Shown here piece by piece: positions 23,322 through 34,130 of a stretch of 34,130 bases of DNA; position 1 is the first letter of the stretch; each line of letters begins with the position of its first letter. Under the pieces are notes generated by a model that saw nothing but the letters and a program-made list of their open reading frames with translations, was not told the DNA's origin and made no database searches. A program made the position numbers and the translations under genes. The DNA is from a virus (Duplodnaviria; Heunggongvirae; Uroviricota; Caudoviricetes): the IMG/VR virus record IMGVR_UViG_2859799533_000006, one strand, 5' to 3'.

Positions 23322-23448
23322 CAACAAATATGCCCTGAACGTTTATTGCGGTTTTATCGCCGGGGATTGTTACAACCTTAATCCGCAGGAGGCTTTATTG
23401 TGACTTTTATAAAGAATATGGCATCACACAAGACCGCTGGATTTGCCC

Positions 23449-23756
23449 CTATATTTCCAGACATCTGTTATCACTTAACCCATTACAAGCCCGCTGCCGC
23501 AGATATTCCCGTGGCGAGCGATAACCCAGCGCACTATGCGGATGCCATTCGTTATAATGCTCGAACGCCTCTGCAAGGTTCTTTGCTGCCGTTAACCCGT
23601 CTGGTTTGGGCATGATACTGATGTAGTCACGCTTTATCGTTTTCACGAAGCTCTCTGCTATTCCGTTACTCTCCGGACTCCGCACCGCCGTGTTCTTCGG
23701 TTCAAGTCCCAACATCCGGGCGAACTGGCGTGTTTCATTAGCCCGGTAGCATGAAC
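23449..23756 (-). pseudogene. insD: IS2 transposase InsD, 3' fragment
   Basis: ORF 23449..23715 encodes the InsD C-terminus ([31 protein letters not shown]...); separated from the 5' part by IS629. Confidence 0.85.
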
Positions 23757-23798
23757 TGAACCGCCCCGGGTTTCCTGGAGAGTGTTTTATCTGTGAAC

Positions 23799-24689
23799 TC
23801 AGGCTGCCAGATCATCGTTTCCGATGGAAGCATAATAAGCTTTTTCTGCTTCTGCCGGAGGAGTATGGCCCAGCCTTTCCAGCAATCGTCGATTGTTATA
23901 CCAGTCCACCCACGTGAGTGTGGCCAGTTCCACTTCTGCACGGTTTTTCCAGCTCTTACGGTGTATTACCTCCGCTTTGTAAAGACCATTGATGCTCTCC
24001 GCCATCGCGTTGTCATACGAGTCGCCTGTACTTCCTGTTGATGCCAGTAATCCGGCTTCCTTAAGCCGCTGTGTGTAGGCCAGCGATACATACTGAGAAC
24101 CTTTATCACTGTGATGGACCGTGCCGGACGGTCGACGGGCCCATAACGCCTGCTCCAGAGCATCCAGCACGAATGTCGTTTCCATGGACGATGAGACCCG
24201 CCACCCCACGATGTATCCGGCAAACACATCAATGATGAACGCCACATAGACGAAGCCCTGCCATGTGCTGACGTAAGTAAAATCAGCCACCCACAGCTGG
24301 TCAGGTCGTTCTGCCACGAACTGACGGTTTACGCGGTCGCCTGCGGCAACGGCTTTCCGGCTGATGGTCGTACGGACCTTTTTACCCCGGAGAACACCGG
24401 CAAGTCCCATAACCGCCATGAGACGTGCCACAGTGCATCTGGCCACTCTGATACCTTCCCGTAACAACTGACGCCAGACTTTACGCACACCGTATACCTG
24501 ATGATTCCCATCGTATACGCGCAGTATCTCTTTCTTCAGCCAGTCATCGCGCTGCGCACGGGCACTGCGTTTATCAGGATGATGTCGCTGTTGCTGACAG
24601 TGGTAATACGTTGACGGGGCAATATGCAGTTCACTGCATACCGGTCCGACCCCGTACAGCTTACGCAGCTTATCCAGCAGTGGCATCAC
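23799..24689 (-). CDS. IS629 transposase OrfB (DDE integrase domain)
   Basis: 296-aa ORF with the IS3-family catalytic region; overlaps orfA in the arrangement for a -1 frameshift fusion. Confidence 0.9.
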
Positions 24690-25012
24690 TTTTTCCAGAG
24701 GCGGTCGAACTCCGCCTTCGCAAAATAAGCGGAAGCCTGGCGAAGGATATCGTTACTGCGGCGCAGTTCACGATTTTCACGCTCCAGCTCTTTCAGACGC
24801 TGACGTTCAGCGGTGGTGAGCCCTCCATCACCGCCCCCGGTATCCCGCTCATGCTGGCGAACCCAGACACGCAGAGTCTCCGGCGTACAGCCAATCTTTG
24901 GAGCAATGGAACAAATTGTCGCCCATTGTGAGTCATATTCGCCCTGACTTTCCAGAACCATACGGACTGCCCGTTGACGGACTTCGGGGGAAAAACGAGT
25001 ATTTTTAGTCAT
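24686..25012 (-). CDS. IS629 transposase OrfA
   Basis: 108-aa HTH/leucine-zipper protein [22 protein letters not shown]... Confidence 0.9.
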
Positions 25013-25066
25013 CCTGTTTACCTCTTTCTCAGGAAGTTTAGTCTCCAGGATTCCCGGGGCGGTTCA

Positions 25067-25667
25067 AACCATTATCCGTCAGCCACTCCACTGGAGACGA
25101 CGGAAGATCGTTGCCGAAGCGGCGTTCCACCGCTCCCAGCATGACGTCCTGTACTGTTTCACTGTTGAAGCCGCCGGTAGTCACCGCCCAGTGCAGTGCC
25201 TCACGATCACAGCAGTCCAGCGCGAACGTGACACGCAGTCTCTCTCCGTTATCACAGCAGAACTCGAACCCGTCAGAGCACCATCGCTGATTGCTTTCTT
25301 TCACGGCCACTCTGCCTGTATGTGCCCGTTTCGATGGCGGTACAGCAGGTTTTCGCTCAAGCAACAGCGCATTCTGGCGCATGATCCGGTAAACACGTTT
25401 GGCATTGATCGCAGGCATACCATCAAGTTCTGCCTGTCTGCGAAGCAGCGCCCATACCCGACGATAACCATACGTGGGCAGCTCTCCGATAACATGGTGT
25501 ATACGGAGAAGCACATCCGTATCATCAGTGTGACGACTGCGGCGGCCATCCATCCAGTCATCGGTTCGTCTGAGAATGACGTGCAACTGCGCACGCGACA
25601 CCCGGAGACAACGGCTGACTAAGCTTACTCCCCATCCCCGGGCAATAAGGGCGCGTGCGCTATCCAC
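25067..25667 (-). pseudogene. insD: IS2 transposase InsD, 5' fragment
   Basis: ORF 25038..25667 ([21 protein letters not shown]...) runs into the IS629 end at 25066. Confidence 0.85.
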
Positions 25668-25990
25668 TTTTTTGCCCGTCCATATTCAACGGCTTCTTTG
25701 AGGAGTTCATTTTCCATCGTTTTCTTGCCGAGCAGGCGCTGGAGTTCTTTAATCTGCTTCATAGCGGCAGCAAGTTCAGAGGCAGGAACAACCTGTTCTC
25801 CGGCGGCCACAGCAGTAAGACTTCCTTCCTGGTATTGCTTACGCCAGAGAAATAACTGGCTGGCTGCTACACCATGTTGCCGGGCAACGAGGGAGACCGT
25901 CATCCCCGGTTCAAAGCTCTGCTGAACAATTGCGATCTTTTCCTGTGTGGTACGCCGTCTGCGTTTCTCCGGCCCTAAGACATCAATCAT
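25625..25990 (-). CDS. insC: IS2 transposase InsC (OrfA)
   Basis: [56 protein letters not shown]... (121 aa). Confidence 0.9.
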
Positions 25991-26164
25991 CTGTACTCCA
26001 ATGACTAGTCTAAAAACTAGTATTAAGACTATCACTTATTTAAGTGATACTGGTTGTCTGGAGATTCAGGGGGCCAGTCTAACCGCCTGCCTTATTGCAC
26101 AATACGGTGAAAATTACATGCATATTGCCTGCTTATTTCTGCGTAAAGCATACGGGAGATAATA

Positions 26165-27801: not shown

Positions 27802-28242
27802 CTATCAGGCACTGCGCGAGGCGGCGGAACAGGCAACGCAAGATGAATGGGTAGCATATATTTTGCCGGGTCATAACGGCATTTATCCTGCGCGCACGTC
27901 TGAGGGTAGGCATTGCGGATACTTTATTGACTGGCCTGGCGTCTGTCAGGGGCGGGAGAGCATCAGCATCAGAACCTACGCAGTGAATTGCAATGACGCA
28001 TGGCTAAACACCGAAGGTGATGACATCTCCGGCTCATACGTTAAGTACAAAGACCATCAGGAAGTGGTTGCCGCTCTTGAAGCCAAGTGCGCGGCGCTGG
28101 CAGCGGAGAATGCGGGAATAAAGTCTGCAATTCCAGAATCACGGGATATTGAGGATGACAATGACAATATGGATGACGTATCTCTCGCGGAAGACTTCGG
28201 GTTCAATCATGCAATAGAACGGATGAGGAGACAGATTGAACC
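27788..28242 (+). pseudogene. Ead/Ea22-like protein, C-terminus disrupted by IS629 insertion two codons before the native stop
   Basis: MSKIDYQALREAAEQATQDEWVAY... is the Ead/Ea22-like N-terminal signature; reading across the 3-bp target duplication gives ...RMRRQID-T-stop. Confidence 0.65.
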
Positions 28243-28278
28243 GCCCCGGGTTTCCTGGAGAGTGTTTTATCTGTGAAC

Positions 28279-29169
28279 TCAGGCTGCCAGATCATCGTTT
28301 CCGATGGAAGCATAATAAGCTTTTTCTGCTTCTGCCGGAGGAGTATGGCCCAGCCTTTCCAGCAATCGTCGATTGTTATACCAGTCCACCCACGTGAGTG
28401 TGGCCAGTTCCACTTCTGCACAGTTTTTCCAGCTCTTACGGTGTATTACCTCCGCTTTGTAAAGACCATTGATGCTCTCCGCCATCGCGTTGTCATACGA
28501 GTCGCCTGTACTTCCTGTTGATGCCAGTAATCCGGCTTCCTTAAGCCGCTGTGTGTAGGCCAGCGATACATACTGAGAACCTTTATCACTGTGATGGACC
28601 GTGCCGGACGGTCGACGGGCCCATAACGCCTGCTCCAGAGCATCCAGCACGAATGTCGTTTCCATGGACGATGAGACCCGCCACCCCACGATGTATCCGG
28701 CAAACACATCAATGATGAACGCCACATAGACGAAGCCCTGCCATGTGCTGACGTAAGTAAAATCAGCCACCCACAGCTGGTCAGGTCGTTCTGCCACGAA
28801 CTGACGGTTTACGCGGTCGCCTGCGGCAACGGCTTTCCGGCTGATGGTCGTACGGACCTTTTTACCCCGGAGAACACCGGCAAGTCCCATAACCGCCATG
28901 AGACGTGCCACAGTGCATCTGGCCACTCTGATACCTTCCCGTAACAACTGACGCCAGACTTTACGCACACCGTATACCTGATGATTCCCATCGTATACGC
29001 GCAGTATCTCTTTCTTCAGCCAGTCATCGCGCTGCGCACGGGCACTGCGTTTATCAGGATGATGTCGCTGTTGCTGACAGTGGTAATACGTTGACGGGGC
29101 AATATGCAGTTCACTGCATACCGGTCCGACCCCGTACAGCTTACGCAGCTTATCCAGCAGTGGCATCAC
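28279..29169 (-). CDS. IS629 transposase OrfB
   Basis: Identical to the copy 1 OrfB except one residue (Cys for Arg in SWKNCAEVE). Confidence 0.9.
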
Positions 29170-29492
29170 TTTTTCCAGAGGCGGTCGAACTCCGCCTTCG
29201 CAAAATAAGCGGAAGCCTGGCGAAGGATATCGTTACTGCGGCGCAGTTCACGATTTTCACGCTCCAGCTCTTTCAGACGCTGACGTTCAGCGGTGGTGAG
29301 CCCTCCATCACCGCCCCCGGTATCCCGCTCATGCTGGCGAACCCAGACACGCAGAGTCTCCGGCGTACAGCCAATCTTTGGAGCAATGGAACAAATTGTC
29401 GCCCATTGTGAGTCATATTCGCCCTGACTTTCCAGAACCATACGGACTGCCCGTTGACGGACTTCGGGGGAAAAACGAGTATTTTTAGTCAT
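29166..29492 (-). CDS. IS629 transposase OrfA
   Basis: Identical to copy 1 OrfA. Confidence 0.9.
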
Positions 29493-29776
29493 CCTGTTTA
29501 CCTCTTTCTCAGGAAGTTTAGTCTCCAGGATTCCCGGGGCGGTTCAGATACCTGAAACGCCAACCACTGATGCTTTCCTGGCTGAAGTCCGGGCGCAGGG
29601 GTGGATGCTGCTATAGAAGCTGCAAAAAATCTGGTGGCCCAAGAATATGAGTGTAAGGATTTCAAAGCGGCGCAGAGTGATTGCTGTATGCACCCTAGTT
29701 CAGACCTGGTAGGGAAGGTTGAAATGACTGAGTGGTTAGTTGACTTTGCTGCCCAGCTTCGCAAAGGAGGCAATCA

Positions 29777-30614: not shown

Positions 30615-30686
30615 TGAAGTGGCACACTGAATTTGGCCACCTGAACAGAGGTGATATGCTCACCTCAGAACAACACAGGTGCTCCA

Positions 30687-31854
<1,168 letters not shown>

Positions 31855-31862
31855 CCACTTCA

Positions 31863-32081
31863 GGATTACTTCACGTTGTTAACGGAAGAGTACGGAAAGT
31901 ACATGGATGGCCCAGGGGTAATTGCTGTTGGGGTAATCCTGACGATAAGCCATTTACCGGGAATAAGCAGGTTGAATGCGATTACATGTTATCTGCATTA
32001 AGGCGCATGGAGTTGAGAGGGCACCTTAATGAAATATATGACGGTGTGATTGTTAATAAGAAAGAAGGAAACGCGGCATGA
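31863..32081 (+). pseudogene. 3' part of the IS911-interrupted hypothetical gene
   Basis: In frame with 30315..30614 across the GGA duplication. Confidence 0.55.
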
Positions 32082-33022
32082 TCACTATTACCAAAGGGCG
32101 ACTGCTGACAATCAAGCAGTGGCGCGAAACATACGGACCGGGTAGCAACGTTGTACTGCCAGCAGAAGAAGCGGAAGAACTGGCACGGATTGCACTGGCA
32201 TCATTGGAAGCAGATCCAGTTAAACGAGTTAACTCAGATCAGATGCACCGAGTCTGCTTAGAAGCTAATCGCTATTTAGATAAATATGACGCGATGGCGA
32301 AAGAGGTAAATAAGTTGCTTGGACGCATCGCCCCGCCAGCGCCAGTATTTAACGGCGAATACGGTGACGCATATCAGGGCGCTCGTGAAGACCTGTCCAT
32401 CTGGAAACGGCGAGCGCTTGAAGCTGATGAGCACGTTCGGCGACTGGAGCAAATCAATGACCACATGGTGAAAGAGGCGCAGGGAGAATCACGCATGGGC
32501 GAGCCTGTAATACGTGAGCCAGCACCGGTAGTGCCTGAAGAAGCAACTCCGGAAAACGTAGAAATGCTCTCTGGCTATGTTTCAACGTACAAATTAACCG
32601 ATAGCGAGCGCGATATTGCTGCCGAAATATGGAACGCCTGCCGCGCCGCCATGCTTCAGTCCGGAAACTTTCGGGAAAACAAGAATTCGTCAACCAATAA
32701 TTTTCGGGAAATCGCGGAAACGTCAACCAACTATCCGGCAATTCCTAGTGAGGTGTTGTCCGCAATCCTGAAGGTTGCCAGGATTCGTGCCGATTTCGAT
32801 GATTTTGACGGTGACAGGCGAGGTATCGGTGATTGTCTGGATGAGGCTGAGCAAGAGCTTATCGTTACCATTAACAAATATGCCAGTCAGTTGGCAGCAG
32901 AACCTATAGCGCCTAATGACGTTCGAGAGCAGACAGCCATTCCACAAGTTCCGGTAATTCCGGATGGTTGGATAAGCTGTAGTGAGCGAATGCCGGACGA
33001 CAGGCAGGAGGTGAATCAATGA
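32078..33022 (+). CDS. hypothetical prophage early-region protein
   Basis: 314-aa ORF overlapping the previous stop (ATGA); acidic, partly coiled-coil. Confidence 0.5.
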   Translation: MITITKGRLLTIKQWRETYGPGSNVVLPAEEAEELARIALASLEADPVKRVNSDQMHRVCLEANRYLDKYDAMAKEVNKLLGRIAPPAPVFNGEYGDAYQGAREDLSIWKRRALEADEHVRRLEQINDHMVKEAQGESRMGEPVIREPAPVVPEEATPENVEMLSGYVSTYKLTDSERDIAAEIWNACRAAMLQSGNFRENKNSSTNNFREIAETSTNYPAIPSEVLSAILKVARIRADFDDFDGDRRGIGDCLDEAEQELIVTINKYASQLAAEPIAPNDVREQTAIPQVPVIPDGWISCSERMPDDRQEVNQ

Positions 33023-33102
33023 GCTGGCCTGATGCAATCGTAACTCTGGGGGTGGTATTCGCAGCAGCGTTTGTTGTGTTCTCGATTTGTCGATGGGGAT
33101 AA
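33019..33102 (+). CDS. 27-aa hydrophobic peptide (not in the ORF track), translationally coupled to the upstream gene
   Basis: ATG overlaps the upstream TGA; GGAGGTG RBS; MSWPDAIVTLGVVFAAAFVVFSICRWG is a single predicted TM helix. Confidence 0.4.
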   Translation: MSWPDAIVTLGVVFAAAFVVFSICRWG

Positions 33103-33106
33103 CCAC

Positions 33107-33349
33107 ATGTTCGCTTTGATTCAACGCGGTCAGATATACACGGACAGAGCTGGATACCCCGTGGTGATTACTCGCATCACTGAGCACTCAGTGTTCTTTC
33201 GACGGATGGACGGACGATCCGGGCGGGTACGCATTGGTGAGTTAAACTGCCTGTTCGAACATATTGACCACCAGGAGTACCGCAAAATTCTCGCGGACAC
33301 TGAGCAGGAAAAGCACCTGAAAAAATTACGAGCCATAAAAAGGAAGTAA
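33107..33349 (+). CDS. hypothetical protein
   Basis: MFALIQRGQIYTDRAGYPVVITRITEHSVFFRRMDGRSGRVRIGELNCLFEHIDHQEYRK... Confidence 0.4.
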   Translation: MFALIQRGQIYTDRAGYPVVITRITEHSVFFRRMDGRSGRVRIGELNCLFEHIDHQEYRKILADTEQEKHLKKLRAIKRK

Positions 33350-33423
33350 AGAATGAATAAAGCATTTGGGTGATGCTGCCAACTTACTGATTTAGTGTAT
33401 GATGGTGTTTTTGAGGTGCTCCA

Positions 33424-33699
33424 GTGGCTTCTGTTTCTATCAGCTGTCCCTCCTGTTCAGCTACTGACGGGGTGGTGCGTAACGGCAAAAGCACTGCCGG
33501 ACATCAGCGCTATCTCTGCTCTCACTGCCGTAAAACATGGCAACTGCAGTTCACTTACACCGCCTCTCAACCCGGTACGCACCAGAAAATTATTGATATG
33601 GCCATGAATGGCGTTGGATGCCGGGCAACTGCACGCATTATGGGCGTTAGCCTCAACACGATTTTACGTCACTTAAAAAACTCAGGCCGCAGTCGGTAA
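33424..33699 (+). CDS. insA: IS1 protein InsA
   Basis: [43 protein letters not shown]... (91 aa, zinc finger plus HTH). Confidence 0.9.
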
Positions 33700-33743
33700 C
33701 CTCGCGCATACAGCCGGGCAGTGACGTCATCGTCTGCGCGGAA

Positions 33744-34130
33744 ATGGACGAACAGTGGGGATACGTCGGGGCTAAATCGCGCCAGCGCTGGCTGTTTTAC
33801 GCGTATGACAGGCTCCGGAAGACGGTTGTTGCGCACGTATTCGGTGAACGCACTATGGCGACGCTGGGGCGTCTTATGAGCTTGCTGTCACCCTTTGACG
33901 TGGTGATATGGATGACGGATGGCTGGCCACTGTATGAATCCCGCCTGAAGGGAAAGCTGCACGTAATCAGCAAGCGATATACGCAGCGAATTGAGCGGCA
34001 TAACCTGAATCTGAGGCAGCACCTGGCACGGCTGGGACGGCTGGGACGGAAGTCGCTGTCGTTCTCAAAATCGGTGGAGCTGCATGACAAAGTCATCGGG
34101 CATTATCTGAACATAAAACACTATCAATAA
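33744..34130 (+). CDS. insB: IS1 InsB (expressed as InsAB' by programmed -1 frameshift)
   Basis: [44 protein letters not shown]...; stop at the last three bases of the window. Confidence 0.85.

Follow-up and report, generated by a model that had tools for sequence, protein, structure and literature searches.

Bacteria encode small single-pass membrane proteins that bind larger ones, among them KdpF (29 aa), PmrR (29 aa), MgtS (31 aa), CydX (37 aa) and AcrZ (49 aa). Members of this class have fewer than 50 residues, a single helix, their own start codon and ribosome-binding site (RBS), and polar ends arranged by the positive-inside rule, and they are usually missed by gene callers. Type I toxins fall in the same size range, at 26–50 aa. 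In lambdoid phages, the exo-xis region is transcribed from the pL promoter within minutes of infection, and its genes influence the lysis–lysogeny decision and hence Shiga-toxin production (PMC10834534). Here we analyse a window of 34,130 nucleotides (the whole stretch of DNA under study, IMG/VR virus record IMGVR_UViG_2859799533_000006), which is an E. coli/Shigella-type lambdoid prophage, and a 27-codon open reading frame (ORF) close to its 3′ end. An initial annotation, made from the letters of the DNA, had proposed that this ORF encodes a transmembrane peptide with a strong RBS, coupled to the gene upstream. We show that the small ORF is a real, conserved protein-coding gene and not a chance ORF. 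Its product belongs to a peptide family that is widespread, essentially unannotated and without a name, and for which a function may be proposed by analogy only.

Sequence and membrane character of the small ORF

The window reads CAGGAGGTGAATCAATGAGCTGG at 33005–33027. This segment holds a Shine–Dalgarno sequence, GGAGGTG, whose last G lies 5 nt before the ATG (7 nt when counted from the GGAGG core), and an ATGA in which the start codon of the small ORF overlaps the stop codon of the 314-aa ORF upstream. The strong RBS and the stop–start overlap described in the initial annotation are thus both present, and its single-helix peptide is confirmed as well: residues 6–24, AIVTLGVVFAAAFVVFSIC, are strongly hydrophobic, with a mean Kyte–Doolittle hydropathy of 2.63 and a summed Hessa dG of -1.85 kcal/mol, and are flanked by an acidic N-terminal end and a basic, aromatic C-terminal end (Table 1). 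The same span has a hydropathy of 2.0–2.6 in all five peptide alleles tested. The composition is that of a membrane helix, and membrane insertion is well supported by this composition; at 27 aa, with one membrane-spanning hydrophobic stretch, the product lies within the limit of 50 aa used here for small single-pass membrane proteins.

As a control for chance, we took the 169 ORFs of 20–40 aa that begin with ATG in any of the six frames of the window. One of them reaches 2.0 or more in 19-residue hydropathy, a Shine–Dalgarno-like 5-mer precedes 2, and the small ORF is the only one of the 169 to combine such a 5-mer with a membrane-grade hydrophobic stretch. The window holds no longer version of the ORF, because its frame is closed 11 codons upstream of the ATG.

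Evidence for a protein-coding gene

Scanning IMG/VR with a degenerate DNA pattern, in which codons 3–6 and 25–28 were fixed, yielded at least 120 loci. Across all loci, 208 of 209 pattern matches have the in-frame spacing of 78 nt, and in all but 3 of these 208 an ATG stands exactly two codons before the invariant tryptophan, giving a peptide of 27 aa. At the DNA level the matches comprise 54 distinct variants, which encode at least 32 different peptides. In the 18 codons left unconstrained by the pattern, the entropy at codon positions 1, 2 and 3 is 0.56, 0.32 and 0.99, and pN/pS is 0.43 in the frame of the small ORF versus 0.76 and 1.77 in the other two forward frames. Together with the conserved translation signals, the entropy and pN/pS values point to an independently translated ORF under purifying selection. 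Residues W3, A6 and G11 of the peptide are invariant, and P4, A15, R25 and W26 are nearly so.

The conserved segment has sharp borders. Across 57 non-redundant contexts, the mean pairwise identity is 0.33–0.43 upstream of position −15, rises to 0.69 from −15 to −1, where the RBS lies, and to 0.75 in the unconstrained codons of the ORF (0.78, 0.88 and 0.59 by codon position), and drops to 0.36 right after the stop. From this profile, the conserved unit is exactly the RBS plus the ORF. The initial annotation had named conservation of the frame as a check, and the frame passes it: length, start and stop are kept in 142 distinct contexts, each taken with 600 nt upstream and 400 nt downstream, and across alleles whose DNA is only 65–73% identical to that of the window.

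Conserved coupling to the upstream gene

The ATGA junction is kept in all 142 contexts, of which 116 have an open stretch of 60 codons or more in the frame that ends at the TGA of the junction. Between the GGAGG core and the ATG the distance is 7 nt in 100 contexts and 10 nt in 31, together 131 of 142. The second codon of the peptide always begins with A (Ser AGC, Thr, Asn or Ile), so that the overlap is preserved. The genes that end at this junction belong to at least five unrelated C-terminal types: the full DUF551 C-end (…LPEPPQEVNQ), the truncated DUF551 form found in the window, a gene ending in …GLISVEDILR, p77 of phage 933W (…LKNIEQKVNQ) and the gene of phage Av-05 (…AMLKKKGMNQ). No informative Pfam domain was found in the upstream genes of other contexts (L209–L211). 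The coupling architecture is conserved even as the upstream partner changes.

The upstream protein of the window has matches among Ea22-related PHROGs, and of the C-terminal DUF551 domain it retains only positions 1–16 of the 68-position profile; relatives end in …THWMPLPEPPQEVNQ and the window protein in …ERMPDDRQEVNQ, a difference that reads as an internal deletion of the DUF551 domain core. The C-end at 32966–33019 consists of the DUF551 remnant …DGWISCSERMPDD followed by RQEVNQ and the stop. The deleted form, with the rest of a 561-bp query, occurs in at least 128 complete E. coli genomes, and some of these copies are still named ‘DUF551 domain-containing protein’ in RefSeq.

The same name has reached the peptide itself. 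The peptide has no match to DUF551 (PF04448), and the ‘DUF551’ label on peptide fragments probably comes from the neighbouring gene. The annotation pipeline PGAP names fragments of the peptide at contig edges ‘DUF551 domain-containing protein, partial’, and some 90% clusters group 27-mers together with DUF551 proteins from which the peptide is missing. True fusions exist. Two Ea22-like coiled-coil proteins of 143 and 206 aa (P0159 and P0160) end in …LPPLE[SN][NK]KMSWPDAF…RWG, and two further proteins, P0133 (78 aa, Salmonella) and P0232 (153 aa), carry the peptide module at their C-end. A long open frame upstream is present in only 1 of 229 profile hits (locus L093, among 307 loci), and a search of viral contigs with P0160 gave matches to its N-terminal part only. 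A separate peptide ORF is the rule and fusions are rare; these rare fusions hint at a functional link between the peptide and the upstream protein.

Distribution and database status

In a DNA search of 5,426 complete E. coli genomes, the allele of the window or its relatives were found in 1,001, and a commoner allele in at least 1,638 (at least 30%). For the latter, single genomes hold as many as seven copies, and about 150 occurrences are on plasmids. In the plasmid database PLSDB, 181 plasmids carry the peptide gene, 174 of them non-mobilizable, in Escherichia, Salmonella and one Klebsiella host, and the records listed are mostly 80–130 kb; their size and mobility suggest that these carriers are P1-like phage-plasmids. 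Other carriers include the Shiga-toxin (Stx) phages 933W and Sakai Sp5, phages YYZ-2008 and BP-4795, the virulent phage Av-05 and plasmids of about 95–105 kb. In YYZ-2008 and BP-4795 the corresponding position codes for (M)MNWPEAFTAVGVAIAVAFILYSLFRWG, and both GGAGGTG and ATGA are unchanged. Lambda lacks the gene, as do the K-12 prophages CPS-53, Rac, Qin, DLP12 and e14, in which the best match has E = 0.43.

Av-05 (KM190144.1) is a virulent 121-kb member of the Vequintavirinae. Its peptide gene (L211 2001–2084) encodes MTWPEAFTTVGVVMAVAFAVYSVCRWG with a TGA stop, and the C-end of its ATGA-coupled upstream gene, …GWNACRAAMLKKKGMNQ, resembles IWNACRAAMLQSGN in the Ea22-like protein of the window. 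This likeness suggests that the module may have been exchanged between temperate and virulent phages.

We define a ‘WP(E/D)AF’ family by an N-proximal W-P-[ED]-A-[FIL], a G five residues later, an A at +4 from that G, a hydrophobic run, a basic or aromatic C-end and a length of about 27–45 aa. The window peptide has all of these features and matches the family profile at E = 2.5e-17. A profile search of 5.8 billion proteins, run with an alignment headed by 45-aa database calls, returned 188 clusters at 90% identity with E ≤1, whose source names are E. coli, Shigella, Salmonella and E. albertii. Among the 120 clusters listed, lengths range from 25 to 78 aa, and the one precomputed Pfam domain (PF14359 in P0056) does not cover the peptide. 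An exhaustive HMMER search of 1.84 billion representatives gave 137 clusters at 50% identity with E ≤1e-3, which share W-P-[ED]-A-F-x-x-V-G-x-A-[FMW]-A-x-A followed by a hydrophobic stretch and a basic terminus, and the longer relatives have K/R-rich C-terminal tails. The neighbours of distant relatives (L216, L217 and L220) contain no informative Pfam domain.

The peptide has no significant match in Pfam, PHROGs, NCBIfam or PADLOC, a sequence-profile search of the PDB was also empty, and the peptide string was found in no paper of the literature searched. An exact-sequence look-up did not find the 27-mer of the window in a collection of 15 billion proteins. A 40-aa protein (P0109), named ‘MULTISPECIES: hypothetical protein’ and present in 427 contigs, consists of a 13-residue N-terminal extension, MKIEYQDAAGGES, and the exact 27 residues of the window. 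Several sister alleles have been deposited as ‘bacteriophage protein’, ‘Prophage protein’ or ‘putative prophage protein’ and ‘hypothetical protein’ (for example AOM45384.1, ASL59396.1 and ETJ68712.1); they belong to the same family as the window peptide, but are sporadic calls without a family, domain or function. In every RefSeq or GenBank record inspected (E. coli chromosomes, PhiR5_1, PhiR12_1, YYZ-2008, BP-4795, 933W, ArgO145, Av-05, Sakai Sp5 and a 105-kb plasmid), the gap that holds the gene is featureless. The initial description of the peptide as unannotated therefore stands for the 84–87 nt between the upstream gene and the DUF4222 gene in these near-identical and related records. Prodigal has a minimum gene length of 90 nt, and at 84–87 nt the peptide gene falls below it.

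Prophage setting and neighbouring genes

The initial annotation placed the ORF in a prophage early region, and an intact relative, NZ_CP026723.1, agrees. There, one strand carries in order a LexA-type repressor, early-left genes, two Ea22-like genes, an Ea22-like/DUF551 gene, an unannotated gap of 84 nt, a DUF4222 gene, a 44-aa ORF, xis and int, which places the small ORF at the distal end of the early-left operon, within the exo-xis region. The window differs from this relative by five insertion sequences (Table 1), three of the IS3 family, a truncated IS2 and IS1, and the early-left operon is cut at three points. Three insertion blocks separate the early promoter region from the small ORF; the IS3-family sequences comprise two copies of one element, one of them beside a truncated IS2, and a further IS3-family element. 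Such a density of insertion sequences is typical of Shigella-like genomes.

Table 1 Features around the small ORF (window coordinates unless another record is named)
Feature	Position	Strand	Remarks
IS3-family element and truncated IS2	23436-26081		Relative to NZ_CP026723.1
Second IS3-family element	28237-29544		Relative to NZ_CP026723.1
Third IS3-family element	30616..31862	+	Just upstream of the Ea22-like gene
Upstream Ea22-like gene	32078..33022	+	314-aa ORF, stop TGA at 33020-33022; RefSeq relatives start at Met 32243; Ea22-related PHROGs; cut-down DUF551
Antisense ORF	32723..33187	-	Frame carries stops in 37/54 variants
Shine–Dalgarno GGAGGTG	33007..33013	+	Within the last codons (QEVNQ and stop) of the upstream gene
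Antisense ORF	33016..33108	-	Frame carries stops in 13/54 variants
Small ORF, 27 codons	33019..33102	+	Product MSWPDAIVTLGVVFAAAFVVFSICRWG, then TAA; read from sequence; unnamed ‘WP(E/D)AF...G...A...RWG’ small-membrane-peptide family
Small-ORF start ATG	33019-33021	+	Stop TAA at 33100-33102
ATGA start/stop overlap	33019..33022	+	Coupling junction with upstream gene; direct reading
Predicted transmembrane helix, residues 6-24	33034..33090	+	Hydropathy; acidic N-end (MSWPD), basic/aromatic C-end (RWG)
DUF4222 RBS GGGGA	33095-33099	+	Inside the small ORF
DUF4222 gene, 80 aa	33107..33349	+	PF13973, E = 8e-14; phrog_285; starts 4 nt past the small-ORF stop
First five codons of 44-aa ORF (MNKAF...)	33353..33368	+	Cut off by IS1
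IS1	33369..34130	+	Between DUF4222 and the usual xis/int site; runs to window end
Peptide gene of Sakai Sp5	L214 1215-1298; NC_002695.2 complement 1305785..1305868		

On the downstream side, a DUF4222 gene follows at +4 nt in about 80 of the 142 contexts. In the others, the features 3′ of the peptide gene include intrinsic terminators, the hokW/sokW locus (933W and Sakai Sp5) and a second small hydrophobic ORF, and the peptide ORF keeps its length and motifs where the next gene is 34–150 nt away. This variety indicates that relaying ribosomes to DUF4222 is not the sole reason why the peptide is kept. A scan of genome contigs with the DUF4222 protein gave two loci only.

Three further observations concern these neighbours. 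In relatives, the 44-aa ORF between DUF4222 and xis encodes a Cys/His-containing product, MNKAFERWVHQRYGNRYDLTRDVDGFYCREVVKRMFEVWCHCRG; it is intact in locus L001 (3554–3688), and the product from this locus has no Pfam match. The second small hydrophobic ORF, MSDDISLAMEGALVVIVVVGVYCLVVLLMERLGN, has 34 aa, lies about 36 nt after the first in some phages, and can be recognised in the databases from read-through fusion proteins (P0102 and P0153), with the downstream context ‘TAAaaacgttcgccgggatt[ac]acaccaaaggagggaatatg’. In 933W, the peptide gene (L209 2001–2084; product MTWPEAFANVGTVMAVVLVVYSICRWR) ends about 150 nt before mokW/hokW, which puts the promoter and leader of the hok mRNA at or just past its 3′ end in phages of this type.

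Proposed role and alternative explanations

The reading that we favour, and hold to be rather probable, is that the small ORF is a real lambdoid-prophage gene for a 27-residue single-pass inner-membrane peptide that is translationally coupled, delayed-early and acts on a larger membrane protein. As a product of the early-left (pL-type, exo-xis) operon, the peptide would appear in the delayed-early phase that follows infection or induction. Ribosomes ending the Ea22-like gene at its TGA would restart one base back, at the ATG, assisted by the GGAGG site within the last codons of that gene, and the same arrangement would hand ribosomes on to the DUF4222 gene 4 nt downstream. In the membrane, the five-residue acidic N-end (M-x-W-P-E/D) is predicted to face the periplasm and the R-W-G end the cytoplasm. 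The grounds for this N-out/C-in topology are the charges of the two ends, acidic at the N-terminus and basic at the C-terminus, and the K/R-rich tails of longer relatives. The helix, with G11 and A15, may pack against a larger host or phage membrane protein and alter its activity, as known small membrane proteins do. The peptide would then serve a dispensable accessory function, and the unit exchanged between phages would be a cassette of about 100 bp made of the RBS and the ORF.

Several points weigh against this reading. The insertion blocks upstream, together with IS1 downstream, probably disconnect the window gene from its promoter, and with the operon cut in this way the window copy may not be expressed. 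In the one ribosome-profiling supplement searched, from enterohaemorrhagic E. coli (EHEC) Sakai (PMC5597208), the peptide sequence is missing, as are the Sakai coordinates of the gene. The pN/pS of the frame amounts to only moderate constraint, and the window allele shares just 13–17 of 27 residues with the other main alleles, the replacements being mostly hydrophobic for hydrophobic. As codons 3–6 and 25–28 were fixed by the search pattern, their conservation in the DNA set is partly built in; the residues that they encode are still conserved in protein-database searches free of that restriction. Conservation has no helical periodicity (permutation p = 0.66), and a single conserved packing face is thus not supported.

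A more far-reaching proposal, which we consider unlikely though worth stating, is that the RBS and 27 codons form a self-contained mobile cassette that docks on an upstream stop codon, and that its product is an unrecognised, widespread effector acting on one specific host inner-membrane protein; candidate roles would be a block to superinfection, or altered transport or signalling during the lysis–lysogeny decision. Were this true, the phenotypes of ea22 or exo-xis deletions in Shiga-toxin phages could in part reflect loss of the coupled peptide. Somewhat less probable again is that the peptide is a membrane-damaging toxin, either depolarising or pore-forming like TisB, DinQ, ShoB and Hok or holin-like, and silenced in the lysogen by prophage repression. 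The initial annotation had remarked that single-helix peptides of such prophage regions can act on membranes or be toxic. The size and hydrophobicity of the peptide are those of type I toxins, its gene lies directly upstream of hok/sok in 933W-type phages, and its operon position would keep it off in lysogens. Against this, Pfam, NCBIfam and PADLOC searches at E up to 10 gave no toxin-family match (two insignificant matches are unrelated to toxins), there is no antisense RNA family in Rfam and no promoter-like site on the antisense strand within or just 3′ of the ORF, and the flanks are not conserved, so an adjacent antitoxin is not indicated. The ORF sits in the early-left operon beside xis and int and not in the lysis cassette, occurs in up to seven copies per genome and is present in a virulent phage too. 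As opposed to the structured, translation-blocked leaders of type I toxins, it has an exposed strong RBS and is coupled to an early gene, and translation signals of this kind, strong, coupled and unrepressed, are more readily expected of a small membrane protein with a regulator- or subunit-like role than of a toxin under tight silencing.

Three other explanations deny the peptide a role or an identity of its own. The frame could be the C-terminal membrane tail of the upstream Ea22-like/DUF551 protein, either detached (a split pseudogene or partial tail) or reached by −1 frameshifting, as the four in-frame fusions, the one fused locus, the PGAP fragment name and the position of the peptide in the −1 frame of the upstream gene might suggest. 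We judge this very unlikely: a long upstream open frame is confined to the single profile hit, the −1 frame of the window is closed before the ATG with no X XXY YYZ slippery site visible, the peptide has its own ATG and RBS everywhere, and several unrelated genes precede it. The odds are marginally poorer still that the ORF does no more than relay ribosomes from the Ea22-like gene to DUF4222 and yields a functionless product. The universal ATGA, the many contexts with a DUF4222 start 4 nt past the stop and the DUF4222 RBS inside the ORF all fit a relay, but the ORF persists with the same length and motifs before a terminator, hok/sok or a more distant gene, its conserved residues and hydrophobicity are kept while third positions vary, and distant relatives keep the motif in unrelated operons. 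That there is no gene at all, and that the conservation stems from a DNA or RNA element or an opposite-strand ORF, seems scarcely credible. One antisense frame does have a pN/pS of 0.36 and is open in 53 of 54 variants, and the window contains two antisense ORFs (Table 1). The open antisense frame shares its wobble positions with the sense frame, where the hydrophobic sense strand keeps stops out, and its start and stop vary from −182 to +283 between contexts; antisense ORFs were rejected, their frames being interrupted in many variants or their ends not conserved. No frame besides that of the peptide keeps fixed ends, and the three-base periodicity together with these ends favours the sense frame. 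Rfam gave no match at E up to 1 in 31800–33500, and shuffled sequence folds as well as the RNA around the start and stop (z = 0.16 and 0.52). On this antisense strand, Stx2 converting phage II has an annotated 249-aa ‘hypothetical protein’, NP_859317.1 ‘ORF C38’, across the peptide gene and its neighbour (L226 101–850, minus); since antisense frames lack conservation on this strand and in this region, the entry probably represents over-annotation.

Comparison with known systems

Lambda and the five K-12 prophages checked, systems where small proteins have been catalogued, lack the peptide gene, and the reference Shiga-toxin phages 933W and Sakai Sp5 carry it, yet their reference annotation is blank at this place. 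Because of the coupling, expression of the peptide may suffer polar effects from mutations in the preceding gene that have gone unnoticed. The gene is a clean candidate for studies of small proteins and of phage–host interaction, not a new principle.

The described genes of the lambdoid exo-xis region, ea22, ea8.5, orf60a, orf61 and orf63 (PMC10834534), share its neighbourhood and strand, between the recombination genes and xis/int in a mosaic, dispensable region, and the peptide gene stands behind an Ea22-like gene. It is not among the described genes and is missing from lambda itself. The exo-xis literature checked, including the same paper, describes no membrane peptide in this region (one paper was matched only by terms in a proteomics table), and the product would be the only predicted membrane peptide of the exo-xis region. 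With the type I toxins TisB, DinQ, ShoB, Ibs, Ldr and Hok/Gef, it has in common a small hydrophobic helix (19–50 aa), and some of its relatives adjoin hok/sok; it differs from them in having no family match, antisense RNA or translation-blocking leader and in being strongly coupled to the gene upstream. As opposed to KdpF, PmrR, MgtS, AcrZ and CydX, to which it has no sequence similarity, the peptide gene is phage-borne and early, not chromosomal, and its neighbours include no membrane protein gene. Similar to these proteins, the peptide is short, with a single helix, its own start and RBS and short polar ends. What is new here is thus a widespread, unannotated small membrane-protein gene of lambdoid phages, of a kind that is already known.

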